Part shown: positions 9,538 to 50,507 of the stretch, in pieces
How positions within the stretch are numbered: the first letter of the stretch is position 1
Layout of the letters: every line of letters starts with the position of its first letter
Assembly: GCA_965224505.1 (NCBI GenBank)
Contig: CBDCZL010000018.1
Span: 2,963,847-3,027,846 of the forward strand
Source: Woeseiaceae bacterium
Lineage (GTDB): Bacteria; Pseudomonadota; Gammaproteobacteria; Steroidobacterales; Woeseiaceae
Direction: 5' to 3'
Length of the DNA: 64,000 bases
The notes under the pieces: model-generated
The model's database searches: none
Seen by the model: only the letters and a program-made list of their open reading frames with translations
What the model was told of the DNA's origin: nothing
Position numbers and translations under genes: made by a program

Positions 9538-9545
9538 GTTCGAAA
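9538..9545. repeat. Target-site duplication GTTCGAAA (left copy) of the IS66 insertion
   Basis: This 8-mer is identical to 11955..11962 and immediately abuts the IS terminal repeat. Confidence 0.9.
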
Positions 9546-9631
9546 GTAACCGGCCATTCTGCACCGTTATTGCGGCACCCAGGACGATTATGTACCCGGT
9601 GCGTGGCGATCTGTCACGCCTTCGACGCTGA

Positions 9632-11188: not shown

Positions 11189-11197
11189 GGCGGACGA

Positions 11198-11578: not shown

Positions 11579-11868
11579 CAGCGCAGCCTCAGCTTCAGGC
11601 CCGAAGGGAGTTCAAGCTCCACCTGCCACCAGGAATCATCCTGCGCGCTGAGCAACGACGTGACATCGAGAAGTGCCGAAGCCTGCGCACTACTCGGTCG
11701 AGCTCTCTCGCCTTTAAGCCGTTTGCGCCAGTAGCCAAAGGTACTGTACGCAACACCGTGCACCTCACAAAACTCACGCTGCGAAAGATCGCCTGCATCG
11801 TAGGCCGCCATCAACTCCAACCAGTCCGCTCGCCTCTTGCGCACGGACTTTCCCGTTACCTCACTCAT
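11578..11868 (-). CDS. tnpA: IS66 Orf1 (TnpA, HTH protein)
   Basis: The probable start is the internal Met (MSEVTGKSVRKRR...). It contains the HTH-like segment SQREFCEVHGVAYSTFGYWRKRL. Confidence 0.75.
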   Translation of the reverse strand: MSEVTGKSVRKRRADWLELMAAYDAGDLSQREFCEVHGVAYSTFGYWRKRLKGERARPSSAQASALLDVTSLLSAQDDSWWQVELELPSGLKLRLR

Positions 11869-11954
11869 CTGATTTGCTCCTGTGTAATCAACGGAGCGGA
11901 AAACGTAACCGGAAATCAAAAATGGGGGAATAACGGCCTACAATGGCCGCTTAC

Positions 11955-11962
11955 GTTCGAAA
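11955..11962. repeat. Target-site duplication GTTCGAAA (right copy)
   Basis: Identical to 9538..9545. Confidence 0.9.
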
Positions 11963-12574
11963 AGACAAAGCCGTCGATTTCGAGTTTCCTTTGCCGGAGT
12001 CGTTGTCCGGAGAAAGAGTGCCCCGCAGCATGAGAGTCACTGTTGCATGGTTCACGCCGGCAAGTACGGCGCGTGCCTGTTATCGGCTTTCTTCACTGGA
12101 GGCAATTGCACTAGACGCAAATGGCGACGTTGCCGATAGGCGATGGCTTTTGCGACTAAAAACCAAGAATCTTGCGACCACCATGTTGAAGAAGGGCAGC
12201 GTTTGGTCCTGTAGGCTTATTCAAGATACCGCGACGGTACCCGAGTATAGAGACGACACAACTTTGAAGATTCGCGTCCAGTGTTCTGACCCATCAAGTG
12301 GCGCGCTTGATCCGGATCTCGATATCCGGTTTGCTTTGGCGGCGAGTCTAGAAGTAGAGGCGGACGTTGAGTTCGATGTTCATCAAGAGATTCAAGCGCA
12401 AATTCGACTTCGACTTCAGGACCGTGGCTAGTGAGGCTGAATTATTCGGCACTCTGTGCTCTAACCGGTTTCAGTTATTAACAAACTATTTTGTCTTATT
12501 AACAATCTTTATTGTTCATTCACACGAACTTAACTCCGTCACTTTTCCCAAGGACGAAGCAGAGAAACTCCGTC

Positions 12575-12650
12575 ACTCTTTGGCGAACTGTTGCCGCAAA
12601 GCAACAATTCAATCTGGTAATGCTGCTGCGCGCCAAAAGCAGCCGCTCGA
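12575..12650 (-). repeat. Degenerate attC-like cassette-boundary repeat with no associated ORF
   Basis: Read on the minus strand, it has CGAGCGGCTGCTTTTGGCGCGCAG, resembling the 5' box of the family, followed by the hairpin GTTGC-TTTGCG-GCAAC. Confidence 0.25.
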
Positions 12651-12674
12651 GAACAGAATCTGATTGTCCGCTTA

Positions 12675-12783
12675 TGGTAGCGGGGGTTCGCTGCAAACGC
12701 TATCAAGCGCTGGTCACAGCCCTGGATATCGGGACCAGAAACCCGCTATTTTGAACGTCTGACATCGGCCAAAGCGGCTGTTC
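12675..12783 (-). repeat. attC-like repeat, subtype ending CCCCCGCTACCA
   Basis: About 64 nt aligns with 23329..23392 with about 9 mismatches. The 5' box contains the plus-strand GGCCA at 12767. Confidence 0.4.
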
Positions 12784-12837
12784 AATCAACCTTTCGGTTC
12801 TTACCTCGTATCTCCGTTCTCGGCCACAAGCCGCCGT
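12784..12837 (-). repeat. Short attC-like repeat directly after the stop of the LRR gene
   Basis: Minus strand: TGA-ACGGCGGCTTGTGGCCGAGAACGGAGA...AAAGGTTGATTGAAC. The AAC...GTT arms flank a short centre. Confidence 0.4.
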
Positions 12838-13851
12838 TCAGTTCGTCTTGGAATACTCACCAAATCCTTTTTCGTCCAAGGTTTTCCTCGCCCGCTCGTT
12901 CCATTTCTGACTACCTGAATAGATAGCGACTGTTTCCATCGACTTCGGCCAGTTCGCTTCTACGAGGCCGTCCAGATCGAGCTTTGTTCGCGAAGTTCGG
13001 AAGTGCCGAAGGCCTTTCAGGTCAAGCAGCCCATCAAGCCGGTCTAGGCTCTTGCAGTTGTGCAAGGAAACCTCTTCGGGCCTACTTCCAGCAAACGAGA
13101 TGCTCCGAAGCTGTATTTGATCCTCCACATGCAATCGGCGCAGATTCGGAAACCTCGATAGATCGCCGAGATCATTGAAACCCTTGACTCTCAGAACCTC
13201 TAACTCGCTCAAATTAGCGTGTTTAATTTCATCAATGTTTTCTCGGCCACCGAGAATTATTGTTAGCTTGTCTAAGTTCGGTATTTCATTGACGAACTCA
13301 AGCTTCTGCCTTTTCGCAATCGACCCCAAACTGAGCTTGGTGAGATTCTGGAGACGCGAGAGCACCACAATGTTCTTCAGGTGCCCGTTGAGAAAGAACT
13401 CATCTAGGTTGTCGCAAGTCTCCAATGGCGACAGGTCAAAGTTCTTCTTCTTGTTGTCTGACAATACGAGACGAGTTATTCGGGTCAAATCCAGCGTTGC
13501 CAAGAAACGCGGTGCGTCAAAGTGATAAACACCGAAAGAGAACTTCCGAAGATTTGGCATTCGCGCAATCGCGTCTTCGTTCTCGATGTGCATCAAACAA
13601 TCGACCGAAAGCCATTGCGCATCCGGCAGGTGCTTCAGGACAGAAGCGTCAAATGCGCCCGAATAGTGCCCATAGAATCGTACTTCTAGCTTGTCTCCGT
13701 ACTCTGAGCAAAACTGGTTGACTTTCTTCAGTAGACGCGGCGAATAACCGGGCTTCGAGAATTGTACGGTTGGATTGACGCCGCGACCTAGGACTTCGTC
13801 TAAGTGGTCGCGCGAGACCTTCTTGGGGTCTGTGATCCGGTTTTCTAGCAA
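12838..13851 (-). CDS. Leucine-rich-repeat protein (cassette-borne)
   Basis: 337 aa with a TTG start. It has repeated LxxLxLxx(N/C)xL-type units about 22-24 aa long (NLRKFSF, ITRLVLSDN, NLDEFFLNG, NLTKLSLGS, NLDKLTIIL, LSELEVLRV, NLRRLHVED...). No enzymatic domain was recognised. Confidence 0.6.
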   Translation of the reverse strand: MLENRITDPKKVSRDHLDEVLGRGVNPTVQFSKPGYSPRLLKKVNQFCSEYGDKLEVRFYGHYSGAFDASVLKHLPDAQWLSVDCLMHIENEDAIARMPNLRKFSFGVYHFDAPRFLATLDLTRITRLVLSDNKKKNFDLSPLETCDNLDEFFLNGHLKNIVVLSRLQNLTKLSLGSIAKRQKLEFVNEIPNLDKLTIILGGRENIDEIKHANLSELEVLRVKGFNDLGDLSRFPNLRRLHVEDQIQLRSISFAGSRPEEVSLHNCKSLDRLDGLLDLKGLRHFRTSRTKLDLDGLVEANWPKSMETVAIYSGSQKWNERARKTLDEKGFGEYSKTN

Positions 13852-13897
13852 AGTCGTGCCATCTTTGTCCGAGAGAGCGGCTTGGTTTCGAACGACC

Positions 13898-13985
13898 GCA
13901 ACGGGTCAGAGGACGAAACCGCTAACGCGGTAGTTGTCGCAATGATCTGAGTTCATCGAAAAATTAACAGTCAAGGCCTCCCCTG
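13898..13985 (-). repeat. attC-like repeat (3' half clear) upstream of the LRR gene
   Basis: The plus-strand 11-mer GCAACGGGTCA at 13898 is identical to 17190..17200 and differs at one position from 26057..26067. All three lie 26-47 nt upstream of a minus-strand start codon. Confidence 0.3.
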
Positions 13986-14037
13986 TGTTGAGCTTGTGGT
14001 TACCACACGCAGCAAACAACAACACAGGAGAGGACCC

Positions 14038-14928
14038 ATGACCAAGAACAAGTCTATCAGCCCGTTGCGCCGACGACTGCTCGATGACATGCGGATGCGT
14101 AAATTAAAGCCCAAGACCCGGTCCGGCTATCTGCGTGCCGTTATTCGGCTGACGCGCTTTCTGGGCCGTTCACCGGACACCGCAAGTGCTGAGGATCTTC
14201 GGGATTTCCAACTGCACCTGGTCGATGCTGGGGTGACGGCACCGACCCTCAACAGCATGATTACCGCGCTGAAGTTCTTCTACGGCACCACGCTCGGCAC
14301 CCCGGAGGTGGTGGCGCTGATGAGCCCTTTGCCACAGCCCGAGCGCCTGCCGGCGGTATTGAGTGTCGAGGAAGTGGCGGAGCTTCTGGCCTGTGCACCG
14401 AACCTCAAGGCGCAGACGGCCTTGTCGGTGGCCTACGGCGCAGGTCTTCGCAGCTCCGAGGTGGTCAGGCTCAAGACCACCGACATCGACTCCGATCGCA
14501 TGGTGATCCGCATCGACCAGGGCAAGGGGGCGAAAGACCGCACCGCTATGCTGTCGCCGGCCGTCCTGCAGCAACTGAGGACCTGGTACCGCACCGCCCG
14601 GGCCAGGCAGCAGGTACGCCCGGGCAGCTGGCTGTTCCCCGGCCAGGGGGGCAGGCATTTATCGCCCCGGCAGCTCAACCGGCTGTTCCACCAGGCAGCC
14701 GATGCCGCCGGTATCAACAGGCGCGTGTGCCTGCACACCCTCAGGCACTCCTTTGCAACCCATCTGCTGGAGAAGAACACCGACATCCGGGTGATCCAGA
14801 TGCTGCTGGGCCACAAGAAGCTCGAGACCACGGCCCGTTACAGCCATGTGGCCAGCAAGACCCTGCTTAAAGTCGAGGGTCCGCTGGATCGCCTGCCGCT
14901 GGGGGCGAGCCGGCCACAGGCCCGCTGA
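14038..14928 (+). CDS. Tyrosine recombinase / integrase (IS91-associated type)
   Basis: The ATG at 14038 gives MTKNKSISPLRRR.... The catalytic region contains GLRSSEVVRL, HTLRHSFATHLL and LLGHKKLETTARYSHV. Confidence 0.85.
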   Translation: MTKNKSISPLRRRLLDDMRMRKLKPKTRSGYLRAVIRLTRFLGRSPDTASAEDLRDFQLHLVDAGVTAPTLNSMITALKFFYGTTLGTPEVVALMSPLPQPERLPAVLSVEEVAELLACAPNLKAQTALSVAYGAGLRSSEVVRLKTTDIDSDRMVIRIDQGKGAKDRTAMLSPAVLQQLRTWYRTARARQQVRPGSWLFPGQGGRHLSPRQLNRLFHQAADAAGINRRVCLHTLRHSFATHLLEKNTDIRVIQMLLGHKKLETTARYSHVASKTLLKVEGPLDRLPLGASRPQAR

Positions 14929-14950
14929 GAACCTCGCTTCGTAGCTGCGT

Positions 14951-16147
14951 ATGTCGCGGCCTCCTTTGGAGGTCGCCGACATCGTCCGTGCCCGGGGACT
15001 TGAGTATCGGGCCGCCCATCGTGGCCACTTAAGCCTCGGGCAGCTCAAGGTACTGTCGGCGATCGAGCGCTGCCGAACGGCGGAACTCGGCGGCCACAGG
15101 TTGCACTGCAAGCGGTGCGACACGGACACGCTCGCCTATAACTCCTGTCGTAACCGCCATTGCCCCAGGTGCCAGGCCTCGGCCGCCGAACGCTGGCTCA
15201 AGGCACAGGAGGCCAACATCCTGCCGGTGCCGTACTTCCACGTGGTCTTTACCCTGCCCGAAGAGCTTCGTTCTATCGCCTACCAGAACAAGGCACGGGT
15301 CTACGATCTCCTGTTCAAAACGGCATCAAGGACCCTGCTCAGGATCGCCGCCGATAACAAGCACCTCGGGGCCGAGGTGGGCCTCACTGCCGTGCTGCAC
15401 ACCTGGGGATCGTCGCTCACCCATCATCCGCACCTGCACTGCATCGTCACCGGTGGCGGCTTGAGTGAGGACGGCAGATGCTGGATCCGATCACGGCCCA
15501 ACTTCCTGGTGCCCGTCAAGGTGCTGGCCCGGCTGTTCCGGCGCTACTTCCTCGAGGCGCTCATCAAGGCACACGGCAAAGGCGACCTCCGGTTCTTCGG
15601 CAAACTCGATCATCTCAACGACACCGATAACTTCGCTGGCAACCTAGATCCGCTCAGGAAGATCGACTGGGTGGTCTATGCCAAGCGGCCCTTCGCAGGC
15701 CCTGAGGCCGTGCTCACCTACCTGTCCCGGTACACCCACCGCATCGCCATCGCCAACCGCAGGCTGGTCGCCTTCGACGAGCGGGGGGTCACGTTCCGTT
15801 ACAAGGACTACCGCAGCAAAAAAGCCAATCCCTGGAAATCCATGACGCTGAACACCGACGAGTTCCTGCGCCGCTTCCTGCTGCATGTCCTGCCACCGGG
15901 CTTTCATCGCATCCGCCATTACGGCCTGCTGGCCAATGCCAGGCGACAACACAAACTGAAGATCGCCAGAACCTTGCTGCGGTGCCAGGCCAAAGATGAG
16001 AGGGAGCCTGCGGATCTAAAGGACAAGGAGGCTCAGGAACAATCGCCGACCTTCACCTGCCGACACTGCGGTGAACCGCTCATCGTCGTCGAGATCCTTG
16101 TGCCCCAGAATAATGCCCGGGCGCCCCCGCAACGGCATGCCGCATGA
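14951..16147 (+). CDS. IS91-family (rolling-circle, HUH/Y2) transposase
   Basis: N-terminal zinc-binding region CKRCDTDTLAYNSCRNRHCPRCQ, the HUH-like motif HTWGSSLTHHPHLHCIV, and a Tyr motif YLSRYTHRIAI. Confidence 0.85.
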   Translation: MSRPPLEVADIVRARGLEYRAAHRGHLSLGQLKVLSAIERCRTAELGGHRLHCKRCDTDTLAYNSCRNRHCPRCQASAAERWLKAQEANILPVPYFHVVFTLPEELRSIAYQNKARVYDLLFKTASRTLLRIAADNKHLGAEVGLTAVLHTWGSSLTHHPHLHCIVTGGGLSEDGRCWIRSRPNFLVPVKVLARLFRRYFLEALIKAHGKGDLRFFGKLDHLNDTDNFAGNLDPLRKIDWVVYAKRPFAGPEAVLTYLSRYTHRIAIANRRLVAFDERGVTFRYKDYRSKKANPWKSMTLNTDEFLRRFLLHVLPPGFHRIRHYGLLANARRQHKLKIARTLLRCQAKDEREPADLKDKEAQEQSPTFTCRHCGEPLIVVEILVPQNNARAPPQRHAA

Positions 16148-16516
16148 ACCGATACAAACGAAACCCGATGATCAAAATGAGCGCCGTCAACTTACGGCGG
16201 CAACGGGCTGCTTGCGGCTTGTCTCACCGACGGAAAAGATCGGGTCGCTTGCCGCGACTACCAACGCAAAAAATACACCGGCCGAGCGACGATTATCAGA
16301 ACGTCGGCATTGAATATCCCGCTATCAAATACGAAAAGATGCAGACCCTGGACCCGGCACTACGATCAAATCCCCATAGCCCGAAACATCATCGCACCCA
16401 GACCATTCAACGCTGCGGTTTCCTCCCCTGGGTCTTGTCCGTCGCCTGCTCCTGATACGACGACATCACCGACCACACCACCGAGCGCGCCTCCGATCCG
16501 CATCACCGCGTACGCA

Positions 16517-16702
16517 GGCAACTGACAACACTTAACAACAGCGGAGATTGTAACGCATTCCAGGCCACTGGCAGCTTTGTTATGCATAGGAGTCGTTCGA
16601 AGGCCTACCCAGCAAAATCCGATTTTGGAATTCCGCGTTTTTTGAAAGCGGTCGTCAGATCGCCGCCGTGGAAAACTTCGCTTCTCGGCCAAAACCAGCC
16701 GG
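16517..16702 (-). repeat. attC-like cassette-boundary repeat
   Basis: Minus strand: TGA-CCGGCTGGTTTTGGCCGAGAAGCGAAG ... GAATGCGTTACAATCTCCGCTGTTGTTAAGTGTTGTCAGTTGCC. The plus-strand 19-mer at 16542..16560 matches 26072..26090 with 2 mismatches. Confidence 0.45.
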
Positions 16703-17161
16703 TCACTTCGCAAGTTTCCTAAGCACTTCGAGCACATCTGGGCGAGATTGACGCTGGCTTTTTATGCCGATACTGGCAAGGTCCAACTCGCACGAAACCC
16801 AACTTAAATCTGCCCGAAATGGAGAATTGACATCGAGGTATCCCTCGATCTTGAAAACGACTCCCTCTAGATCATCAAAGCTAAGACGATCATCTTCAAT
16901 TCGCCGCAAGACCTCCGCCACCAGTAGCCGGAAATCGTCATCACTGGGTTTGTCTTGCACTAGGTCCAAGCGATCAAGTCGAGCAAGACCTGCTTCGTCT
17001 CCTAAAGAAATAGTCGTCAAAAAATACGGAGGATTCGGCAGTGTCCGGATCATCTCATCGGCCCATGCCACTAGTTCTTCTTGGGAAAGTAAACCGACCT
17101 TCGCAGCGAATAGATTGGCTCTCGCCAGCTCTCGAATTTCCGATTCGGTCGGATTCTCCAC
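16703..17161 (-). CDS. Acidic hypothetical protein (cassette-borne)
   Basis: 152 aa with a GTG start. It is flanked on both sides by attC-like repeats, and no family was recognised. Confidence 0.5.
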   Translation of the reverse strand: MENPTESEIRELARANLFAAKVGLLSQEELVAWADEMIRTLPNPPYFLTTISLGDEAGLARLDRLDLVQDKPSDDDFRLLVAEVLRRIEDDRLSFDDLEGVVFKIEGYLDVNSPFRADLSWVSCELDLASIGIKSQRQSRPDVLEVLRKLAK

Positions 17162-17189
17162 AGCACATCCTTGATCTATTCGAGTGGCT

Positions 17190-17300
17190 GCAACGGGTCA
17201 CGAACCGTAGTTCGGTAAAAGAAAAATCATACCATTTGAATGGTCGGTTTTCGCTGTTTAGCCGCCGTTGGAGCGGCAATTATCGGCCCTCAAGAATTCT
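17190..17300 (-). repeat. attC-like repeat
   Basis: The 3' box is GCAACGGGTCA (plus strand, 17190..17200). The 5' part AACGGCGGCT (minus strand) is shared with 12784..12837. Confidence 0.35.
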
Positions 17301-17311
17301 GGGAGCTATTT

Positions 17312-17938
17312 GTGTTTCGAAACAAGAAAGAGCCGGAAGAACGTATTCCCTGGAACAAGGGAAAGCTTATCGGGCAAAAAGTGCCGTTTACAAGGCAGGA
17401 AATCTGGGCCATCCGGATGCGTCTGCAGACGATCGGACATCGTCGGGATCTCGCGCTGTTTAACCTGGCGATCGACAGCAAGCTCCGAGGCTGTGACTTG
17501 GTCCGACTGCGTGTATCCGATGTTGCCAGCGGTGGCGAGATACTGTCCCGCGCCACTGTTCGACAGCGCAAAACGAAGCGGCCCGTTCGATTCGAGATCA
17601 CGGAGCGGACCCGAAAGTCTATCGAAGAATGGATTACCGCCGCGCAGCTAGCGGATAGCGATTACCTGTTTCCGAGTCGAGTGAAGCGCTCGCCATACCT
17701 GTCGACACGGCAATATGCGCGCATCGTTAATGACTGGGTACGGGCTATTGGCCTGGACCCGAGCGCGTATGGAACGCACTCACTGCGACGAACCAAGGCG
17801 ACGTTGATCTATCGCCGCACGAAAAATCTCCGAGCCGTCCAGCTGTTGCTCGGGCACACCAATCTCGATAGCACTGTGCGCTACCTAGGTATCGAGATTG
17901 ATGACGCCCTGGAGATGTCCGAGCAGATCGACGTGTGA
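17312..17938 (+). CDS. Short tyrosine recombinase / integrase
   Basis: ORF 17240..17938, with a probable GTG start at 17312 just beyond the repeat. Motifs: LRGCDLVRLRVSDV, THSLRRTKATLIY and LLGHTNLDSTVRYLG. Confidence 0.75.
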   Translation: MFRNKKEPEERIPWNKGKLIGQKVPFTRQEIWAIRMRLQTIGHRRDLALFNLAIDSKLRGCDLVRLRVSDVASGGEILSRATVRQRKTKRPVRFEITERTRKSIEEWITAAQLADSDYLFPSRVKRSPYLSTRQYARIVNDWVRAIGLDPSAYGTHSLRRTKATLIYRRTKNLRAVQLLLGHTNLDSTVRYLGIEIDDALEMSEQIDV

Positions 17939-18498
17939 ATCGAGTCGAGCGCCCTCCGCGGCGCTCGGCTTGATGAGCCGTCCTGGCAGGTGGTTGATCG
18001 AATGCGCGTCATTGCTGGGCCCCTTGGGCACAGTAATGACGCGCGGCGCCAGCCCCGAAACCACGCCGCATGTCGTCACGATTTTCCGACGACAGGCGAA
18101 TGACGCCGCCGTAATCTGCACCGACTGAATTGAGAGCGCGCCGTCCGCTATACGACGGCAACCGTGCTGGCCAGGGCTCGATCTACAGCACCGGGGACGT
18201 TTCCCTGAGAGCCCATCTTCAACGCAGGTGGTTGCACTGCATGTTACTCAAAGGAGGTAAACACATTGGCAATCGTCATTTTCGCTCCCTCCGGGAGCAA
18301 AGCTGGAGCGCACCGATCCAGATCTGATTCATCAGAGAACCGGTGTGGCCTGTGACCAGGCCCTGTTCAGGTCATGTGGGAGTGGTGTCCCAGGATCGAT
18401 ACTCATCCTCTAGCGGATGTCCTTGTTTGACTCCGGTCGGCAAGTGATCAGAAACACTCACCGAACATGAAAATGAACCCAAGTGAGGTCCAACACCA

Positions 18499-19365
18499 GT
18501 GAGACGCCTGAACTACCAGCTGAAACAACTGTGTAAGAACAACCGGGATGGGAGCTACGGCACCCAGGTGCAACGCGAGCGCGTACTGACGCTGATTGCC
18601 AATCAGCTCCACGACCTGGGCTTTCGACGCATGTACGCGAGGTCCTTGCGTCCGAAGCACGTCGAGGCCCTGGTGAAGCACTGGTTAGAGACCAGGGCCG
18701 CTGTCGGCACCATCAAGAACCGCATGACGGCCATACGTTGGTGGGCCGCCAAGGTCGGTAAGCAAAATGCGGTGGCACGCTCAAACGATCACTATGGGAT
18801 ACCGCGCCGGCAATACGCGAACGGCGCTAACCGTGCGATCGACTTGGACAAGCACAAGCTCGCCCTCATCAGCGACCCATACGTGAGGATGAGCCTCGAG
18901 CTGCAGCGCGTGTTCGGTCTCCGGCGAGAGGAAGCCATCAAGATCCGTCCGGTTGTCGCCGACAAAGGGGATGTTCTTTGGCTCAAGCCCAGCTGGACGA
19001 AGGGCGGCCGGGCTCGCGAGATCCCGATCCGCATCGAGGCGCAACGGGCAGTCCTGGACCAAGCCAGGTCACTTGCCGGTAAGGGCTCGCTCATCCCCGC
19101 CGAGAAGACCTACAAGCAGCAGAAGAACCGCTACGAGGGGCTATGTATTCGCGCAAGCCTTTGCAAGATGCATGGCCTCAGGCACGCCTATGCGCAACAG
19201 CGTTTTGAGGAAATCACAGGCTTCCCGGCGCCCCTCGCAGGAGGTCCAAATCGTGCTGACCTCACGATTGATCAGCGCGCGCTCGACCAGAAAGCGCGCG
19301 CCGTAATCTCCGCAGAGCTCGGGCACGAACGCGAGCAGATCACCGTGACTTACCTGGGGCGATGA
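18499..19365 (+). CDS. Integrase-domain protein (tyrosine recombinase with an N-terminal SAM-like domain)
   Basis: 288 aa. Motifs: GLRREEAIKIRP, HGLRHAYAQQRF and ELGHEREQITVTYLGR. Confidence 0.7.
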   Translation: MRRLNYQLKQLCKNNRDGSYGTQVQRERVLTLIANQLHDLGFRRMYARSLRPKHVEALVKHWLETRAAVGTIKNRMTAIRWWAAKVGKQNAVARSNDHYGIPRRQYANGANRAIDLDKHKLALISDPYVRMSLELQRVFGLRREEAIKIRPVVADKGDVLWLKPSWTKGGRAREIPIRIEAQRAVLDQARSLAGKGSLIPAEKTYKQQKNRYEGLCIRASLCKMHGLRHAYAQQRFEEITGFPAPLAGGPNRADLTIDQRALDQKARAVISAELGHEREQITVTYLGR

Positions 19366-19561
19366 GCAGCGGCCGATCAACATCACCTCGAGTCTCCAGA
19401 AGCACATATTTGGAGCCTGCCCCACAACGGGGTAATAATCGGCGGAGTGCGTCCGAAGGGGACAAGCCCGACCGACGGATCGTAGCGCTTGTCAAACTGC
19501 TAGCCCGGCTCGCGGCGGAACAGGATTTCCAAGACGAGCCGAATGAACGGTAACGATACAC

Positions 19562-21205
19562 ATGAGCGAAACAAAGGGTCGACGCGTAGCCATCTACGCC
19601 CGTTACTCGAGCGATCTCCAAAGCGATTCCTCTGTCGAAGATCAGATCCGCCTCTGCAGCGAATTCGCTGAATCCAAGACCTGGAACCTTGCAGGCCAGT
19701 ACTGCGACGCCGGGCTTTCCGGTGCTTCGTTGATGCGACCCGGAATCCAGCAGCTGATTACCGACGCGCTGGCGGGCGAGTTTGACGTCGTATTAGCCGA
19801 AGCACTCGACCGCATTTCGCGGGACCAGGAAGACATTGCCGGCGTCTACAAGCGAATGGAATTCGCTGGCGTTGAGATCGTCACACTCTCTGAAGGCCCG
19901 ATCTCCTCCCTGCACATTGGCCTGAAAGGCACGATGAATGCCTTGTTCCTGAAGGACCTCGCCGACAAGACACGGCGGGGACTGCGCGGCCGAGTGGAAC
20001 GCGGCAAATCGGGCGGCGGAATCGCTTACGGCTATGAGGTTGTTAAGCGATTCGATCTGGAGGGAAATCCCTTGCGAGGCGACCGGTCCATCAACGAGGA
20101 CCAGGCACAGATCGTGCGGCGAATTTTCGAGGATTACTCGCGCAACCTGTCGCCGAGAGCCATCGCGTCACAACTGAACTCAGAGGGCGTACCCTCACCG
20201 TCGGGTAAGACCTGGTCGCAGTCCGCGATTAACGGCAATAGACGACGCGGTACAGGCATTTTGAACAACGAACTCTACATTGGGAATCTGGTTTGGAACC
20301 GCCAGCGGTTCATCAAAGATCCGGATTCGGGCAAGCGCGTTACCCGGCTCAACGACGAGAGCGAGTGGATCATTCAGGAGGTTCCTGAGCTGCGCATCGT
20401 CCCTCAAGAATTGTGGGACGAAGCAAAGGCGCGTCAAAAAGAACTCGATACCAGGAAACCCGGCTTGTGGCGACGAAACCGACCTCGCTACCTGCTATCG
20501 GGTCTCATCAAGTGCGGCGAATGCGGGGGCGGATATTCGAAGATCAACACCACCCATTACGGTTGCTCGGCAACCAGGAACAAAGGTGAAAGCGTTTGCA
20601 CAAACCGTAAGACGATGGCTAAGAACCAACTGGAGGGAGCGGTTCTCAAGGCTTTACAGACCCACCTGTTGCGAGACGATCTTGTTGAAACTTTCTGCCA
20701 GGAGTACGCGCAACATTTGAACGAGCTCAGGAAGGCCCAACATGCGGCTAAACGCGCAAAACAAGCTGAGCTCCGTCAATTGAAGAAAAGGCAGGAGCAA
20801 GTCATACAGTCGATCTACAACGGCGTCGACGCGAGAATGATCAAGGACGAGTCCAGGTACATCGCCGACCGGATGGAGGAGCTGGAAGCTGAAGAAGCTC
20901 AGCAGCAAGAGCAACCGCCACCCAAACCGCTGGTACACCCGGCGATGGCAGACCGCTATCGAGAGGAAGTAGAGAACCTGAGAGAGGCGCTTAATCGCAA
21001 GAATGCGCAAGCTGAAGCATCAGAGCACCTGCGTGCGCTCATCGGGAAGATAGTGCTCACACCGGAACCGGGGCGAGAAGATCTGCGCATCGATCTGCAC
21101 GGAGACCTGGCCGGAATCCTACAAATAGCCAGCCAAAAACAAGCTCGGCCCGGAAACGAAACCATTTCCGGGCCGAACAAGATAGCGTTGGTAGCGGGGG
21201 CGTGA
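19562..21205 (+). CDS. Large serine recombinase
   Basis: N-terminal resolvase motif VAIYARYSSDLQ...EDQ...SRD, a recombinase domain, the zinc ribbon CGECGGGYSKINTTHYGCSATRNKGESVC, and a coiled-coil tail. The last codons (LVAGA-stop) lie inside the attC-like repeat at 21189..21293. Confidence 0.9.
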   Translation: MSETKGRRVAIYARYSSDLQSDSSVEDQIRLCSEFAESKTWNLAGQYCDAGLSGASLMRPGIQQLITDALAGEFDVVLAEALDRISRDQEDIAGVYKRMEFAGVEIVTLSEGPISSLHIGLKGTMNALFLKDLADKTRRGLRGRVERGKSGGGIAYGYEVVKRFDLEGNPLRGDRSINEDQAQIVRRIFEDYSRNLSPRAIASQLNSEGVPSPSGKTWSQSAINGNRRRGTGILNNELYIGNLVWNRQRFIKDPDSGKRVTRLNDESEWIIQEVPELRIVPQELWDEAKARQKELDTRKPGLWRRNRPRYLLSGLIKCGECGGGYSKINTTHYGCSATRNKGESVCTNRKTMAKNQLEGAVLKALQTHLLRDDLVETFCQEYAQHLNELRKAQHAAKRAKQAELRQLKKRQEQVIQSIYNGVDARMIKDESRYIADRMEELEAEEAQQQEQPPPKPLVHPAMADRYREEVENLREALNRKNAQAEASEHLRALIGKIVLTPEPGREDLRIDLHGDLAGILQIASQKQARPGNETISGPNKIALVAGA

Positions 21206-21293
21206 TTTGCCCTGTTCCGACAGCTCGAAAGCGAGTCCGTTTGAAGTAGCTCAGGTCTCCAAGCTGGCTTCGCCCGGGCCAAATGCCCGCTTC
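21189..21293 (-). repeat. attC-like repeat, subtype ending CCCCCGCTACCA
   Basis: Minus strand: TAA-GAAGCGGGCATTTGGCCCGGGCGAAGCC ... CACGCCCCCGCTACCAAC. The plus-strand TGGTAGCGGGGG at 21189..21200 is identical to 12675..12686 and 23329..23340. Confidence 0.4.
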
Positions 21294-22232
21294 TTAGTAC
21301 ATTGTCACTTGTATGCTGGTATCAGGATTCAAGTCCTCCCGTGGATCAGTAACGAGTCCGGCAGGGAAATCCACCCGCAGAGGCAAACCGGCGCGGTCGA
21401 GGCACAGCAGGTGATTATTGTCACCATCGCCACGATCCGCGATTGCGTAAGGCACCAGTTCAGTCTCGCCTGCGTCGTTGAATGACATGGTCACCCGATA
21501 CGCTGCGCGCTCGATGTCATCGATCTCCTTGCCGCCCGGCTTGGTGACGCCACCAGCCCAGGTCACCCGGACGACTTGCTGAGTACCGGTCGGACATCTG
21601 TCGCCACCGCCAAATGGCAGGGGGGTAGCGGGCTTGCCGAGTTCCCAATCTGGTTCCGGAACGACCTCGGACCATACCAGCGTCGGGCCCGCTTCCAGCG
21701 CTACTACCGATGACTGTATGCCGCGGAAATTAAGCTGCCCATCCTTCGACAGAAGATTGCCAACGATCTTCACGCTAATCGGCTGATCCTCGGCGCTGCC
21801 GTACTCGCCGACGACGAGAATGGTTCGAATCTCACCGGGATCATTGGCGGGCGCTGGCGTGACACAAGTAATCTCTCCGACGGACGCGGATTCGGCGACG
21901 ATTCGAAAGTCCCCAGCCTGCATCGTCTCGGCATCGATCTCGTGAGAGAAGATGACCGGCATCCCGTCCGCCCCGGCAGCCCCTCGACAGATGCCCCTGT
22001 CGCTTATGTCTGGCAACCCGTTGTCGAGCCCGAAGAAGGCCGAAAGAAGAGTCGCCTGTCTGCCGCTCAAATCGGTGGTCGCGGTAACATCAGTGATCGT
22101 CGTGTCCTCCTGAGTCGAGTCAGACAAGGCGCTCATCTCGCTGGCTTGCTGCATCAACTCAAGCCTCGCGCAACCGGTCACGTGTACGCCGATCAGGAAC
22201 CAGAACAGAATCGATATGTATTGGAAACGCAT
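21294..22232 (-). CDS. Putative lipoprotein, function unknown
   Basis: 312 aa with a signal peptide and a lipobox-like HVTGC. No family was recognised. Confidence 0.55.
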   Translation of the reverse strand: MRFQYISILFWFLIGVHVTGCARLELMQQASEMSALSDSTQEDTTITDVTATTDLSGRQATLLSAFFGLDNGLPDISDRGICRGAAGADGMPVIFSHEIDAETMQAGDFRIVAESASVGEITCVTPAPANDPGEIRTILVVGEYGSAEDQPISVKIVGNLLSKDGQLNFRGIQSSVVALEAGPTLVWSEVVPEPDWELGKPATPLPFGGGDRCPTGTQQVVRVTWAGGVTKPGGKEIDDIERAAYRVTMSFNDAGETELVPYAIADRGDGDNNHLLCLDRAGLPLRVDFPAGLVTDPREDLNPDTSIQVTMY

Positions 22233-22534
22233 AGCCTCTGCCTCTTATTGGAATGCTCGACCGCTTCCGGTCAGCTGCGAGAGATTTGTAGAAGTCGAAA
22301 ATGATCAACACCAGAGTTGTTCGGATATAGTGTAGGGCTCGGCGGGAGGCATCTGCGTGCTGGCTTAGATACTTAAGATTATTAGACTATTTCGGGCATG
22401 ACTTTCTCTAGACTCACTTTCTTTACCGGTGGATCTTAAACCTTGGGCTTCGCTTGGCCTTTAGTCGCCTCGTTGATCACAATAATGCGTTTGATTCTGC
22501 GCAAAATAGAAACTGGTTTACATTTCGGCAAAAA

Positions 22535-23251
22535 ATGGACGTTGTGAGATCTCTGGCCGCATGCCCGGTCCTGTCCAAACTGTCAGACACAGTTCTTGTT
22601 GAATTGGCTGGCAAGTCTAAGGTGAGACACGTTGAATCAGGGGCAATTATCTATGAACGCCAGACCTATCCGGACTGTTTGACGGTACTCGCCAGCGGAC
22701 AGGTCACTTTTTCTGTCCTGAATGCGGATGGGAAGCAGGCCATCATCTGGCGATTGCAGGCGACGACCTGGTTCGGAGCTGACGTATTTTCGCCCGGCTT
22801 GCCACGCGTGTTCCGGGCGAGCGCCCATACAGACGTGTCGCTGATCGAAGTACCTGGACAGAATTTTCGTGATGCCTTAAGAGACAACCCTGATGCCGCA
22901 ATGGATGCCCTGTCCAAGCTCGGGCGGAGAACATGGGCCTTCATGTGCCTGGCAGAGGATGACAGGGTTCACGACACCAAAGTCCGTTTGATGCGCCGTC
23001 TCGTGCTGATGGCGGAATATGCAGGGTCTTCGCTATTGGATTCTGCGTCGCCGGAGTTTGAAATGACACAAGATGACCTGGCCCAGATTCTAGGCATGAC
23101 ACGCCAGGGAATCAGGTCTGCCCTGAAAGAACTGGCAACCCTGGGCTTGATGGATCTCTCCTACAAGAAGGTTTCTCTTCGCTCTCTCTCCCGGATCAAG
23201 AAGTTTCTTCAGAACGAGGCGGACATTGTCATTCCGCAACTGACCGAATGA
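22535..23251 (+). CDS. Crp/Fnr-family transcriptional regulator
   Basis: ORF 22454..23251, with a probable start at Met 22535. It has a cNMP-binding-like N-terminal domain and the C-terminal HTH TQDDLAQILGMTRQGIRSALKEL. Confidence 0.75.
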   Translation: MDVVRSLAACPVLSKLSDTVLVELAGKSKVRHVESGAIIYERQTYPDCLTVLASGQVTFSVLNADGKQAIIWRLQATTWFGADVFSPGLPRVFRASAHTDVSLIEVPGQNFRDALRDNPDAAMDALSKLGRRTWAFMCLAEDDRVHDTKVRLMRRLVLMAEYAGSSLLDSASPEFEMTQDDLAQILGMTRQGIRSALKELATLGLMDLSYKKVSLRSLSRIKKFLQNEADIVIPQLTE

Positions 23252-23297
23252 ACATGCGGTTTGAAGACCCAGTTTCCGGTATTCCGCGGGTTTGATC

Positions 23298-23329
23298 AAC
23301 AATAAAGGCCGACCCCACTGGGGTCGGCG
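23298..23329 (+). terminator. Rho-independent terminator of the crp-like gene
   Basis: Stem GCCGACCCC-ACT-GGGGTCGGC followed by GCTTTTTGTTT. Confidence 0.6.
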
Positions 23330-23422
23330 CTTTTTGTTTGGTAGCGGGGGTTGGCTGCCAACGCTATCAAGCACTGGTCACAGCGATGGATATTCTTACC
23401 AGCCGGCCACACTCAAAGACGC
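23329..23422 (-). repeat. attC-like repeat, subtype ending CCCCCGCTACCA, after the higA stop
   Basis: It aligns with 12675..12740. The plus-strand GGCCA box is at 23405. Confidence 0.4.
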
Positions 23423-23731
23423 TCAAAGCGCCGCCGTCTGTGCCCTGACGACCTTGGGAGCAGGTTGCTGCATCGCCTGCCAAAGATCGTAGTCCACCTG
23501 CATTCTTAGCCAGCTCTCGGCACTCGGACCACGCTTCGGGCCTCCGAGCCATGCCTCCAGTCGCCTGGCCATGTCGGCAGAAATTCCGGACTGCCCATTG
23601 ATCAGACGCGACAACGTCACTCGCGCAACCCCGAGCTGCTTAGCGGCTGCCGTCACCGACAGATCCAACGCCGGCAGGATATCCTCCCGGATCGACTCAC
23701 CCGGGTGCGGGGGATTGTGCATTCGTCCCAT
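23423..23731 (-). CDS. higA: HigA-family antitoxin (XRE HTH)
   Basis: MGRMHNPPHPGESIRE...AAKQLGVARVTLSRLINGQSGISADMARRL. It lies directly downstream of the higB-like gene. Confidence 0.8.
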   Translation of the reverse strand: MGRMHNPPHPGESIREDILPALDLSVTAAAKQLGVARVTLSRLINGQSGISADMARRLEAWLGGPKRGPSAESWLRMQVDYDLWQAMQQPAPKVVRAQTAAL

Positions 23732-23744
23732 GATTCCTGGCCTC

Positions 23745-24023
23745 TTAGTGGTAGTCCTGATAGTCAACGAGGACGGCATCTTCGCCCTCGAACGCAAACG
23801 TCAATCTCCAGTTTCCGCTCACCCAAACCGACCAATGACCTTTCTGGTCGCCCTTCAATGGATGGAGCTTCCAGCCTGGCACATTCATGTCCTGAGGGCG
23901 CTGAGCGACATCCAATCGTTGCAACTGACGCGCCAGCTTAGGGGCGTGCGCCGCCTGAATGCCCGACTTGGTCCCTCTCAGGAAGAAGCGTTCAACACCC
24001 TTGTGGCGGAAACTCTTTATCAC
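23745..24023 (-). CDS. higB: HigB-like toxin (RelE/ParE superfamily, plasmid-maintenance killer type)
   Basis: 92 aa with a GTG start: (M)IKSFRHKGVERFF...LHPLKGDQKGHWSVWVSGNWRLTFAFEGEDAVLVDYQDYH. Toxin-first gene order, as in the higBA family. Confidence 0.8.
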   Translation of the reverse strand: MIKSFRHKGVERFFLRGTKSGIQAAHAPKLARQLQRLDVAQRPQDMNVPGWKLHPLKGDQKGHWSVWVSGNWRLTFAFEGEDAVLVDYQDYH

Positions 24024-24032
24024 CGCAGTAAT

Positions 24033-24049
24033 GTATCGCGTAACGATAC
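24033..24049. promoter_or_regulatory. Palindrome in the higBA promoter region (candidate HigA operator)
   Basis: GTATCG-CGTAA-CGATAC, 10 nt upstream of the higB start. It overlaps a second dyad, CGCGT...ACGCG. Confidence 0.4.
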
Positions 24050-24105
24050 ACGCGTCAATCTATTCGGCCGACGTTTCTCGTCTTGATGGACCCGAGCTCG
24101 CCGAT

Positions 24106-24245
24106 CTGAACAACGAATCGCGAAATGGATGCCAGAGGACCATTGAAGACGGCCCTACCCAAACGACCGCAATTCGCCAGAGCAGTCGTCTAAGCGTCTG
24201 CAGCACTTCCCGTGAAACAGTCGCTTCGCGGCCAATTCCGGTCGC
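24106..24245 (-). repeat. attC-like repeat between the hydrolase and higBA cassettes
   Basis: Minus strand: ...GACCGGAATTGGCCGCGAAGCGACTG ... CATTTCGCGATTCGTTGTTCAGATCGG. It is more diverged than the other copies. Confidence 0.3.
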
Positions 24246-24268
24246 CTAGATTTAATGCCGCGCACCTG

Positions 24269-26031
24269 TCAGAACTCAGGAGGGGGCACAATGATCTCCC
24301 GACCATGGACTTGCTCACCACGCATGAACTTGCGGATGATGTCCGAGACTTCCGGAGAAATCATGAACAAGTTGTGGCCGCCGTTTATAACGGTGACGAG
24401 TTGCCGGTTTTCCAGTTTCGATACTGCTTCTCGTTGGCTGTCAAAATATGTGCGCCCGTCCAGCGTCCCACTTATTAGCAACACGGGAACATCAGAGACG
24501 GGATTTTCCCGGAATGCATCGCCTAGATCGTACGACGGTGCGACATCAGCAAGGTAAATCGTGTCATTCAGAAATTGGCCTAGCAGAGACGATTTCGCCT
24601 GCTGGTCGATGAGCGCCCGGCGGGCAAAACTAACGCCGGAGGCAATATCCATCATCACCGGCATAAGTTTGAATGAAATAGCGGCGCTGGTGGGCCGTGC
24701 GGTAAATTCGGTGACTTTCAGTCGCATCACAACGCCCTTGGGCAAGGCGAGCGAGCGCAGGACTGGCCGTCGCCAATTCAAGCGAGCTCAACGCCGCCGA
24801 AGGGCGTTGTGGTGCGACCCACCGGGAGCCCTTCTCAAGGGGCATACCGGTGTTGAAGTGGCTTGACATAGCCCGGCTATGCCGGCACCGCTTCGCCTGG
24901 GTCTGCCCCTTGAGAAGGACTCTGAAAGTGACCGAATTTACCGCACGGCCCACTAGGTTTGTCCCACCGCCTTAGAAACCCCGCTAGAGGCTCAGTTTGC
25001 CCTTTTTCCAACGCTACATAGATATGTACCAAATCTGCTGCAAATCGATTCGGGTCGGCAATCATCGCTGCTGCGAACCTCTGCATGCCGCGGCGCTGAA
25101 AAACCACTTTGACAGTCTCCCTGTCTTCTTGCGGTATCTCTAGCTCGAGCGGCGACTCCCCAAGTCGGGCATGTACGCGGCGCATTACTGCTTTGATGTC
25201 GAGTGACGCTGCTCCCTCACTCGATTGGGAGTAAATCGCTTCTTGTAGTCGGCCGAAATACTCATCAGTACGCGTTGGCAGCTTAATGGTCTGATCGAGC
25301 CCTTCGGCGCTGGCGATGATGACTCGATCAATGTGATCGTTCATTTGCTTGATTGCCGCAAGCGCAAGGTGTGATCCGTAGGAGATTCCCCAAAGGGACA
25401 GTTTCTCCGCACCAAGGTGGCGACGCAGGGCATCCAGATCCGCGGCATTTTCCTGCGTGTTGTAGCCGCCAAAGTCGATGCCTTGGTCTTGCCAGTAGGC
25501 TATGCACTCCTTGAGCGCGCTCTTCTGCAATTCGACGAACGACTCGTCTGTTGTTTCAGAAGAATCCACGGCATGCTTGGATGAAGTACAAAGTGGCGTG
25601 TCGTCTGAAGCACCTGTCCCCCGTTGGTCGAGCGCGATTACATCACCGAACTCGCGAAGCGCCATAAACAGCGGGAAACGCCAACTGCCTGCGAACCAGA
25701 TTCCCGACCCGCCTGGGCCGCCCGCTAGATAGACAATCGGTGGCCCCGAATCGGGATCCGTTGCTGGAAATCGCAAGTAATGCAGCGTCAGCATCCTGCT
25801 GCCCGGTTCAGACCGGTTTTCGGGAACTTCGAACGTACCCCGGTATGCTTCGACGACCTCGCCGGATTGTGACTCGAACGCAATGCTGACTTCGTTCGTT
25901 TCAGTCGCGGCTGGTAACGAATCCGATGGTGAGCAAGCGGAGAGGGGCGTCAGTGCTGCAATTGACACGATCTGGGCCAGGAGAAATACGACATTGCGGC
26001 TTTTGCGATGCGTCACATCAAGATTGGTCAA
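24269..26031 (-). pseudogene. Alpha/beta hydrolase (S33-like aminopeptidase/esterase) split by a MITE
   Basis: The N-terminal fragment 24877..26031 has YLAGGPGGSG and the nucleophile elbow GISYGS. The C-terminal fragment 24269..24781 has ...LISGTLDGRT...INGGHNLF. Removing 24691..24952 plus one 4-bp flank joins ...RRWDKP to SAAISFKLMP... in frame, giving about 498 aa. Confidence 0.8.
24691..24952 (+). mobile_element. 262-bp MITE, copy 1
   Basis: Terminal inverted repeats of about 33 nt (TGGGCCGTGCGGTAAATTCGGTSACTTTCAG...). Flanks are CTGG on the left and CTAG on the right. There is no coding capacity beyond a spurious ORF. Confidence 0.85.
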
Positions 26032-26056
26032 AGTCCAGTTCCTGTGGCGAATGTTA

Positions 26057-26173
26057 GCAATGGGTCATCAACGGAGATTGTAGCGCAATCGTAATGACGG
26101 GCAGGAATGCCGATCGAAGCCGTCATTCGGTCCGACAGCAAGTTTGTCTCCGCAGTCGGCCAGAACCGGCCGG
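26057..26173 (-). repeat. attC-like cassette-boundary repeat (best-preserved copy)
   Basis: Minus strand: TGA-CCGGCCGGTTCTGGCCGACTGCGGAGA...(central stem AATGACGG/CCGTCATT)...TCTCCGTTGATGACCCATTGC. The outer arms pair at 12 of 15 positions when G-U pairs are counted. Confidence 0.5.
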
Positions 26174-26869
26174 TCACTCGTCAGTCGACAACACCGAATC
26201 CGACAAGACCCTAGCGGCGACCGGATCAACGTCCAAAATACGGACTGATCCTTCTCGACTATAGAGTAGTAAATGTGACGTTTCGCTCACATAGAAATAG
26301 TCGAATAGCCCTCCAACTGATTCCGTGAGTACATTGATCGTCTTGCCATTAGTTGACACTAAGATCATCTGCGCCTCGCGAGAATCTTCGGCCTCGGAGT
26401 CAGAGTTTGTCACCAACATCACAATTCCAGTAACAACTCGATCGCGGGTGCGCTCCGGATCGGCATCATCTTCCGAATACCGATACAAAAACTGATGATC
26501 GACGATTTCATTGGCCGAATCCTCGAAAAGCCAATGTGCTTTGCGTGATTCAATGTCAAAAAATAGCCAGTTTCGGGCGTTTCCGCGCCCGGAGCCTGAG
26601 CCACCAAATTTTGCCGGGCTCGCCAAGGTTGCGTACAAGAAATCCGTACCTTCAAGACGACGGAATCCGCCTAGCGACAGGTCATCGGCGGCAATATCTT
26701 CTCCGGCAACGTCGGCTAACTGGTCTCTCGGTCTGTCGTTGCCGCCGAACAGTCCAGATTCGATAATCAATGCCAAGAGCGCGACCAAGCTCACGAGAGC
26801 GATAACCAGGACAACAACGCCATTTATTCGCCATACCCATGTGAAAAATTTGTCTGTCTTGCTAGTCAT
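26174..26869 (-). CDS. Membrane-anchored hypothetical protein (cassette-borne)
   Basis: 231 aa with a single N-terminal TM helix (VVVLVIALVSLVALLALIIESGLF). No family was recognised. Confidence 0.5.
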   Translation of the reverse strand: MTSKTDKFFTWVWRINGVVVLVIALVSLVALLALIIESGLFGGNDRPRDQLADVAGEDIAADDLSLGGFRRLEGTDFLYATLASPAKFGGSGSGRGNARNWLFFDIESRKAHWLFEDSANEIVDHQFLYRYSEDDADPERTRDRVVTGIVMLVTNSDSEAEDSREAQMILVSTNGKTINVLTESVGGLFDYFYVSETSHLLLYSREGSVRILDVDPVAARVLSDSVLSTDE

Positions 26870-27270
26870 GATTGGAGGTCTACTAACGCTCCCTTGTTAG
26901 TTCTTCGGTGTATTCCTGAACGGCTGCTGTGTCAAAGTCAGAAGTTTACCTCAACTCGAAAACCGCCGTTCGAACGTCGGATAACCACAGAAAACCAGAC
27001 CGTTCTGGCACCAAAATACAGTCTCCAACAACAAGACGCGCGAAAAAACGCGCCCAGGCTGCCAGGTCACGATTCTGCGCGTGTCGTCGACACTCATGGA
27101 ACAGGTCTCATCGGCCTGCCAGTTGCGTTTCAACAAGGTTTTCCTGCGTTCGCTGATCACGCGCCTGCAGGGCAGCGGCGGCGCCAATACATAGGCACTT
27201 CCAGACCCGGTCTAAGACATCTGGTTGTTTGTGTTGTACGCTACCCGCAATCGTACGGTGGGTAGTGAAC

Positions 27271-44405: not shown

Positions 44406-44487
44406 AGGCGTATGCCCTTAAGACCTGTTAATGCCGCGGTTGCGGTCATAAGCAACCATTCGAGATAAAGCCATTTGTTTCAAAATC

Positions 44488-50456: not shown

Positions 50457-50507
50457 CTAGTCTCCACGCCGTCTCGATAGCAGCCGCTCCAGCGGACGGT
50501 GTCGCTA

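Follow-up and report, generated by a model that had tools for sequence, protein, structure and literature searches.

Two classes of 31-bp dyad site in a putative mosaic module array of a Woeseiaceae bacterium, with a small tyrosine recombinase as candidate enzyme

Among the closest described systems to the locus considered here are the dif modules of Acinetobacter, which XerC/XerD recombine, some of which bear toxin-antitoxin (TA) genes, and in which sites composed of an arm, a 6-bp centre and a second arm separate alternating C and D modules (PMC6449649, PMC13141974). The present analysis concerns an array of gene modules in a 64,000-nucleotide stretch of DNA from a Woeseiaceae bacterium (Gammaproteobacteria; assembly GCA_965224505.1, contig CBDCZL010000018.1, forward-strand positions 2,963,847 to 3,027,846). 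This stretch is referred to as the window, and coordinates given without a locus label are positions within it. A preliminary description of the same DNA had placed a unidirectional gene-cassette array, bounded by attC-like repeats, at 12440-27200, and had offered as an alternative a cassette system served by a different recombinase. The array itself stands, with its limits corrected to approximately 12615 and 26937, as a series of discrete gene modules in one direction that are bounded by related repeats, with a TA cassette and insertion sequence (IS) elements embedded among them; same-strand open reading frame (ORF) modules alternate with linkers throughout. The array is not an integron, and it is the alternative of a different recombinase that the comparative data support. 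The interpretation we favour, with reasonable but not strong confidence, is of a mosaic island of ORF and linker modules with two classes of site, for which a small tyrosine recombinase is the proposed enzyme.

Cre acts on lox sites with a 13-6-13 architecture, in which the sequence of the overlap defines the compatible sites, and a segment lying between incompatible sites can be swapped but is not lost. The repeats in the array are built on a similar plan. The family box, which is widespread, is approximately 31 bp long and consists of a 6-bp centre between two arms of about 12 bp. In relatives with clean copies the dyad reads GAACGGCCGCTTT-TGGCCG-AAAGCGGACATTC, and a sister dyad is centred on TGACCC; these canonical relatives conform to the plan of sites of the lox/FRT/dif class, in which a centre of 6-8 bp separates a pair of inverted arms, each some 11-13 bp long. 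The order of each intergenic repeat on the cassette strand is Box1, with the centre TGGCCG lying over each stop codon, then a linker, then Box2, with the centre TGACCC lying 20-70 nt upstream of the next ORF. The heterospecific lox and FRT sites used for recombinase-mediated cassette exchange share this 13-6-13 plan, and here too the centre appears to set the compatibility of sites; by contrast, those sites are engineered, while the present ones are natural and arrayed, and the enzyme proposed here has around 200 aa rather than 343. No covariation between the arms was obvious on inspection of 36 full-length boxes, in which C·A mismatches are frequent. This points to a duplex site bound by protein, of the lox/dif type, rather than to a hairpin. 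A role as hairpin terminators was considered for the boxes and dropped, as they have neither a T-run nor obvious covariation, and searches of Rfam, which contains no attC family, with gathering and E-value thresholds returned nothing relevant on the window or the related arrays.

The motifs quoted in the preliminary description are confined to the array within the window, with every copy in the same orientation, and most were recovered as described. The 5' box TCGGCCANAACCNGCCGGTCA, which is half of a Box1 dyad, has three matches (12820, 16685 and 26156) where 0.05 would be expected. Its core, CGGCCA or GGGCCA, is found at 12766, 12821, 16686, 21276, 23404, 24229 and 26157, one position below the values listed earlier for the shorter GGCCA. 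The 19-mer of the 'inner dyad' recurs at 16542 and 26072, and GCAAYGGGTCA at 13898, 17190 and 26057. Outside the window, the initial search for the pattern GAMCGGCNGSTTNTGGCCGA over genome assemblies gave 120 matches, mostly attributable to chance in GC-rich genomes; the only informative loci were L003 and those with several same-strand copies (L054, L078, L093 and L101), where L numbers denote the loci fetched for comparison. Dyads are arrayed behind short same-strand ORFs in Woeseiaceae and in other gammaproteobacterial metagenome-assembled genomes (L078, L093 and L054). A hidden Markov model (HMM) of the box found 193 matches of at least 10 bits in 1.3 Mb of fetched DNA, against two in shuffled sequence.

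The module carrying a 152-aa ORF (16686-17200, minus strand; ORF 16703-17161) is bounded by a Box1 centre at 16686-16691 and a Box2 centre at 17195-17200. By megablast it has 96-99% nucleotide identity to homologues in L204, L205, L206 and L208, which were traced to their contigs. This identity starts exactly at TGACCC and stops exactly at TGGCCG; beyond these points, the three other metagenomic contexts have unrelated flanking sequence. The linker module that follows the gene (16538-16685, minus strand), which contains the inner dyad GAATGCGTTACAATCTCCG, is found behind different ORFs in L201 (9352-9520, 79% identical) and L202 (9210-9380, 71% identical). An all-against-all comparison of the fetched loci identified 30 internal homology breakpoints; for 20 of these, both partners carry a box-centre hexamer no more than 9 nt away, and the corresponding figure for random pairs of positions is 0.24%. 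In unrelated metagenomes, recombinase modules 740-870 bp long likewise have box centres as their boundaries. No cassette protein was common to loci among the first 200, and the shared modules were found only through a dedicated search for homologues. The alignments of the 152-aa module and the breakpoint count both locate the point of exchange inside the centre, as in the lox/FRT/dif class. As judged from sequence comparison, strand exchange is shown to have occurred at both 6-bp centres, which implies that ORF and linker modules assort independently between genomes. With high probability, the region constitutes a site-specific array of modules.

Two features of the Acinetobacter modules are repeated here: a given module recurs in several contexts, joined to its surroundings at the sites, and two kinds of module alternate along the array, as C and D do. 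The differences are that two classes of centre are present rather than one site in alternating orientation, that one of the modules carries a dedicated gene for a small recombinase, and that the modules are found on chromosomes and plasmids of many genera rather than only on the Rep_3 plasmids of Acinetobacter. Compared by eye with the dif consensus, the box sequence is also unrelated.

Sequence and context incline us slightly towards the product of a gene at 17312-17938 (plus strand) as the candidate catalyst. This small tyrosine recombinase of 208 aa matches Pfam Phage_integrase, is about the size of FimB and does not have a full core-binding domain; it belongs to the Xer-like superfamily, its neighbours in the PDB being XerC-like 4a8e, XerD, XerA and XerH. 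The gene is divergent from the cassettes next to it, and Box2 precedes the conserved N-terminus by 144 nt. A 204-aa tyrosine recombinase in L003, which has inverted boxes on both sides, is 67% identical to it, and the motifs LRGCD, HSLRRT and GH…Y are visible in the alignment of the two proteins. The family comprises more than 8000 close homologues, with 1079 clusters (50% identity, E <= 1e-30) and 401 PLSDB plasmids, and there is a second copy in the 3.8-Mb source genome. An upstream site of the form arm-GGGTC[AG] is present in 50 of 80 metagenome loci, at a distance of 85-232 nt (mostly 85-170 nt), while 44 of 85 loci have an inverted GGCCGR or GGGTCR site no more than 160 nt past the recombinase stop codon. 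These positions place the recombinase gene antisense in the linker between Box1 and Box2.

The recombinase gene adjoins Box2 in the window, L201, L202, L203 and L121, with conservation breaking exactly at GGGTCA. In the window and the first three of these loci a common platform is observed, in which the small recombinase is followed by a gene for a 288-aa recombinase of the Integrase_1 type and then by a third recombinase; Box2 is at the head, and differing ORFs, each followed by a composite repeat, diverge from it. The platforms of the window and L201 are 87% identical over 4 kb, with homology beginning exactly from GGGTCA. The box-flanked arrangement of the recombinase is also found on plasmids pMOL30 and pPA942-IMP45. 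The latter, from P. aeruginosa (L210 237-5700), carries a canonical box, then a phnCDE-ptxD-lysR phosphite-oxidation operon and then the recombinase with inverted TTGGCCGGTTAGCGAC sites, a layout which suggests that whole operons may act as modules.

Between the first two recombinase genes of the platform lies a conserved, apparently structured non-coding region of approximately 560 nt (17939-18498, plus strand). Alignment of the four genomes (window, L201 10629-11187, L202 10904-11458 and L203 10882-11463) with RNAalifold predicted an extensive structure of 149 pairs, 11 of them showing compensatory changes, and no match was found in Rfam. The region could be a long structured leader or non-coding RNA linked to the recombinases. 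Palindromic hairpins with a DnaA-box-like TTATCCACA occur just past the recombinase in L203 (10650-10880, up to three), L121 and L202 (10720-10760), and are absent from the window.

It is quite unlikely that the module system is real but is driven by another enzyme, whether the host XerC/D, the 288-aa Integrase_1-type protein (18499-19365, plus strand; Phage_int_SAM_2 and Integrase_1 domains) or a 310-aa Xer-like protein, with the small recombinase as cargo or as an invertase. The arms of the boxes, as read from the box lists, do seem to be of two kinds, GAACGGC… and GAATGTC…, recalling the XerC and XerD half-sites of dif; an element combining Xer and IS91 genes has inserted exactly at a Box2 centre, and the small recombinase weakly matches tyrosine-type DNA invertases. 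Against this, the small recombinase is the only gene that is consistently flanked by boxes across lineages, whereas the Integrase_1 partner is present in just four of the 42 recombinase loci with enough downstream sequence, which are the four closest genomes, and was consequently dropped as a general catalyst. Nor do the boxes resemble the dif consensus by eye.

A further explanation, which we regard as unlikely though deserving of consideration, is that the boxes are generic palindromes of the repetitive extragenic palindrome (REP) or bacterial interspersed mosaic element (BIME) kind, perhaps with a structural or regulatory role but without any cassette function, that occasional homologous or illegitimate recombination has reshuffled the region, and that the recombinase element merely targets the boxes, much as REPs are targets of some IS elements. 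As with REPtrons, imperfect extragenic palindromes, here of 31 bp, lie past stop codons, alone or grouped with conserved linkers, and the enzyme gene lies between inverted copies of the repeat; furthermore, many copies of the recombinase are solitary 0.8-kb units between ordinary genes. However, breakpoints are found at the 6-bp centre, and not across the arms, in many independent events, and the enzyme that goes with the boxes is not an HUH Y1 transposase (RAYT) but a tyrosine recombinase from the Xer-like superfamily. REP families are usually limited to one species or genus, whereas the box family crosses phyla, being present in Pseudomonadota and Bacteroidota. In the DNA sampled, the repeats also gather in arrays and are not dispersed: in approximately 118 kb from four related genomes, boxes were found only beside the recombinase platform, and the box HMM detected none, bar one weak dyad, in the remaining 50 kb of the window or in L201-L203 away from the platform. 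This sole match outside the array, GAATGGTTGCTTATGACCGCAACC at 44440-44461 (8.9 bits), is an isolated box-like sequence upstream of the gene at 42963-44405 and may be due to chance.

The resemblance of the array to an integron is considerable. In both, a recombinase gene is divergent from a one-direction array of compact accessory ORFs with a site at its head, and repeats with embedded TA cassettes and IS elements are positioned at the 3' ends of the ORFs. The repeats run from the stop codons and combine conserved ends with variable centres, as might be expected of a divergent cluster of attC sites lacking integron-integrases (CALIN), in which an unusual attC family folds as single strands and IntI is encoded elsewhere in the genome. 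Nevertheless, this interpretation is highly improbable. The preliminary description had found no integron integrase in the window, and this remains the case, as the best candidate, the product of 13996-14928 (310 aa), reaches 181 bits where the TIGR02249 cutoff is 265, its match being in two pieces around the IntI-specific insertion. No IntI is present in any of the 80 loci carrying the small recombinase, and a tblastn search with the genuine IntI of L003 found nothing further in the window or in 200 loci. That protein, the sole IntI among the fetched loci, has the characteristic ALERKYP…WFWVFP insertion and is encoded in Uliginosibacterium flavum (L003 707-2700) directly upstream of the box-flanked small recombinase, at a distance of 150 bp. 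The proximity could be taken in favour of an integron, but the boxes are at the 3' end of intI and not on the attI side.

The sites themselves also differ from those of integrons. The boxes had been noted to fit RYYYAAC/GTTRRRY poorly, and a scan for the attC grammar (no more than one mismatch per site, at least six of seven complementary positions, sites 50-150 nt apart) found no pairs between 12.44 and 27.2 kb, whereas the rest of the window yielded 15 chance pairs. Folding of the repeats with DNA parameters, which had been recommended as a check, gave unremarkable results (z between -2.3 and +0.7), and a signature of single-strand hairpins is not evident. The functional unit is a 31-bp duplex dyad site rather than a folded hairpin of 55-140 nt, and each ORF module has two crossovers, at the Box2 centre and the Box1 centre, rather than a single one between the G and TT of GTT. 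Furthermore, ORF and linker are separable and assort independently, whereas an integron cassette carries its own attC. With no IntI-specific domain, no R''/R' pair of core sites and no obvious covariation, the proposal that the repeats are attC-like and belong to a sedentary integron or CALIN is not supported.

Several observations weigh against the interpretation as a module array served by the small recombinase. The link between this enzyme and the sites is one of association, approximately 40% of the recombinase loci are without a site recognisable by simple criteria, and only some 60 residues N-terminal to the catalytic domain are available for reading arms of 12 bp. The boxes of the window itself are degenerate and reach 7-11 bits on the canonical box HMM; in the repeats after the 312-aa gene and higA, Box1 is weak and Box2 is absent, and no recombinase heads the right-hand portion of the array (21.2-26.9 kb). 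The near symmetry of the boxes makes it ambiguous whether they are in direct or inverted orientation. Finally, the local confinement of the boxes holds for the 64-kb window and the loci of relatives, within a source genome of 3.8 Mb in which they may be dispersed more widely.

If the favoured interpretation is correct, Box1 would recombine only with Box1 and Box2 only with Box2, these sites being heterospecific, so that modules would be excised, inserted or exchanged, while the unlike centres of neighbouring sites would keep the array from collapsing. Circles or incoming DNA with such sites would then allow insertion, excision and exchange module by module. Superimposed on the array are an 8.5-kb serine-recombinase island, the Xer-IS91 element at a Box2 centre and a MITE-like insertion in the hydrolase gene (MITE, miniature inverted-repeat transposable element). 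More tentatively, and with slightly less than even confidence, we propose that this locus represents a widespread cassette system independent of integrons, in which a tyrosine recombinase of about 200 aa and two classes of centre move modules among chromosomes and plasmids. Its range would take in Gamma-, Beta- and Alphaproteobacteria and probably extend further, and it would be a counterpart in nature of heterospecific-lox cassette exchange.

The remaining modules of the window can be followed from left to right. The non-recombinase ORFs of the array, namely those for the leucine-rich-repeat (LRR) protein, the 152-aa protein, the 312-aa lipoprotein, HigBA, the split hydrolase and the 231-aa membrane protein, are all on the minus strand, as previously described, with the Crp-like regulator gene alone on the plus strand; the labels given to the LRR protein, HigA and HigB, the Crp-like regulator and the split alpha/beta hydrolase also hold. 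A repeat is found at or overlapping the stop codon of the LRR, 152-aa, 312-aa, higA and 231-aa genes, and about 25 nt past that of the hydrolase, in agreement with the preliminary account. The outermost dyad box, GAGCGGCTGCTTTTGGCGCGCAGCAGCATTAC (12617-12648, minus strand), forms the left end of the array; at its extreme left, directly past the stop codon of the neighbouring ietS gene, tandem AT-rich 20-mers (TTATTAACAAACTATTTTGT and TTATTAACAATCTTTATTGT) are observed at 12475-12515. The repeat of the LRR gene (12753-12842, minus strand) has a Box1 centre TGGCCG over the stop codon (12821-12826 on the plus strand) and a second box centre at 12766-12771. It is followed by the ORF module for the 337-aa LRR protein (12838-13851, minus strand), whose matches to Pfam LRR_4 and its kin are all under the curated cutoff, and by the Box2 upstream of this gene, GAACGACCGCAAC-GGGTCA (13890-13908, plus strand; TGACCC on the cassette strand).

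To the right of the recombinase platform, the repeat of the 312-aa gene (21210-21296, minus strand) is Box1-like, with a variant centre TGGCCC (21276-21281 on the plus strand). The adjoining module (21294-23251) contains genes on both strands: that for the 312-aa protein, in which a lipobox is present, lies at 21294-22232 on the minus strand, and the divergent Crp-like gene lies at 22535-23251 on the plus strand, with a terminator at 23298-23338. The repeat of higA (23339-23424, minus strand) has a Box1-like centre at 23404-23409, then a 64-nt module ending in a tRNA-Met-like core at 23339-23350. The TA module itself (23423-24023, minus strand) comprises higB (23745-24023) and higA (23423-23797), with an HTH_3 match; the RelE/StbE matches (E = 0.0024, 18.3 bits) are under the cutoff of 27.9 bits. 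In the repeat of the hydrolase gene (24150-24271, minus strand), a Box1-like site with its centre at 24229-24234 and a Box2-like site at 24162-24182 with a variant centre are able to pair as a long imperfect hairpin. The alpha/beta-hydrolase module (24269-26031, minus strand) is split by a MITE-like insertion of 270 bp with inverted repeats at 24687-24956. This element, which has terminal inverted repeats of 35 bp and internal hairpins, has two further copies at around 50187-50488 and 59260-59573, and the three share the 40-mer GAAGGGCTCCCGGTGGGTCGCACCACAACGCCCTTCGGCG (24834, 50338 and 59425). The repeat after the 231-aa gene (26049-26178, minus strand) is a complete composite, with a Box1 centre at 26157-26162, a linker and a Box2 centre GGGTCA at 26062-26067. 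The ORF module for the 231-aa membrane-anchored protein, which has an N-terminal TM helix, follows at 26174-26869 (minus strand), and the degenerate Box2 upstream of its gene, GAACGGCTGCTG-TGTCAA (26918-26937, plus strand), forms the right end of the array.

Two unrelated insertions have occurred exactly after the GGGTCA of Box2, namely the recombinase trio and the Xer-IS91 element. The latter (13909-16537, plus strand) encodes the Xer-like tyrosine recombinase at 13996-14928 and an IS91-family Y2 transposase at 14951-16147; the uninterrupted homologue of its insertion site in L201 reads TGTGGGTCA up to the point of insertion and ACAGCGGAGATTGTAACGC beyond it. The third member of the trio is a large serine recombinase of 547 aa (19562-21205, plus strand) with Resolvase, Recombinase and Zn_ribbon_recom domains. 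In L201 the orthologous trio abuts an intact tRNA-Met(CAT), the 3' end of which matches 21189-21209 at 19 of 21 nt by inspection, and homology to L201 stops at 21209. The tRNA remnant at 21189-21209 (plus strand), TGGTAGCGGGGGCGTGATTTG, preceded by the P-type half GATAGCGT, represents the proximal att junction. The proposed distal junction (12675-12738, plus strand; 86% identical to 23339-23402) consists of the tRNA-Met 3'-end-like core TGGTAGCGGGGG and a P'-type half-site (…AACGCTATC). The complementary half-sites, GATAGCGT-core at 21189 and core-…AACGCTATC at 12675, delimit an island of 8.5 kb (12675-21209). As in other tRNA-targeting serine-recombinase islands, the recombinase genes are at one end, with one such gene beside one of the two tRNA-Met 3'-end direct repeats; unlike in those islands, what is targeted is not a tRNA gene but a tRNA-like remnant of 21 nt within the array. 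It is likely that the 547-aa protein is the integrase of this island.

This has consequences for the sequence CCCCCGCTACCA, which the preliminary description had taken for a 3' box of the repeat family: it is instead the 3' end of tRNA-Met, serving as the att core of the serine-recombinase island. The recurrence of TGGTAGCGGGGG is indeed non-random (0.17 copies expected), and its positions at 12675 and 21189 are correct, but the third copy, given as 23329, lies at 23339; this third tRNA-Met-like core is possibly a relic. A tRNA-like gene was considered as the identity of the 64-nt repeat found at 12675 and 23339, and rejected, the match of the repeat to tRNA being limited to the last 12-14 nt. 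ARAGORN found no tRNA in the window, which rules out a live tRNA target there.

The left neighbour of the array is a pair of anti-plasmid defence genes, IetA/IetS (6408-9549). An IS66 element (tnpA, tnpB and tnpC; 9632-11919) splits ietS, the C-terminal 162 codons of which resume at 11943-12431; this 3' fragment (plus strand) matches positions 707-850 of the 855 in the PADLOC IetS profile (E = 3.8e-30). Further to the left, a 231-aa ORF at 4995-5690 has a TniQ match at its C-terminus only, and is possibly what remains of a Tn7- or Tn5053-like element, which suggests that the mobile region reaches to the left of the array.

Neither the box sequence nor the concept was found to be described in a search of the literature, but as its coverage was incomplete, novelty is unproven. 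The locus indicates that the module logic of the Acinetobacter dif type recurs, here with sites of unrelated sequence and, as proposed, a dedicated recombinase of very small size, and the plasmids carrying this recombinase family include resistance megaplasmids of P. aeruginosa as well as pMOL30. If the proposed system is real, it would constitute a new class of accessory-gene traffic that is missed by tools of the IntegronFinder type, would account for many annotations of 'orphan' small integrases, and would provide a compact recombinase with natural heterospecific sites that could be used in genome engineering.

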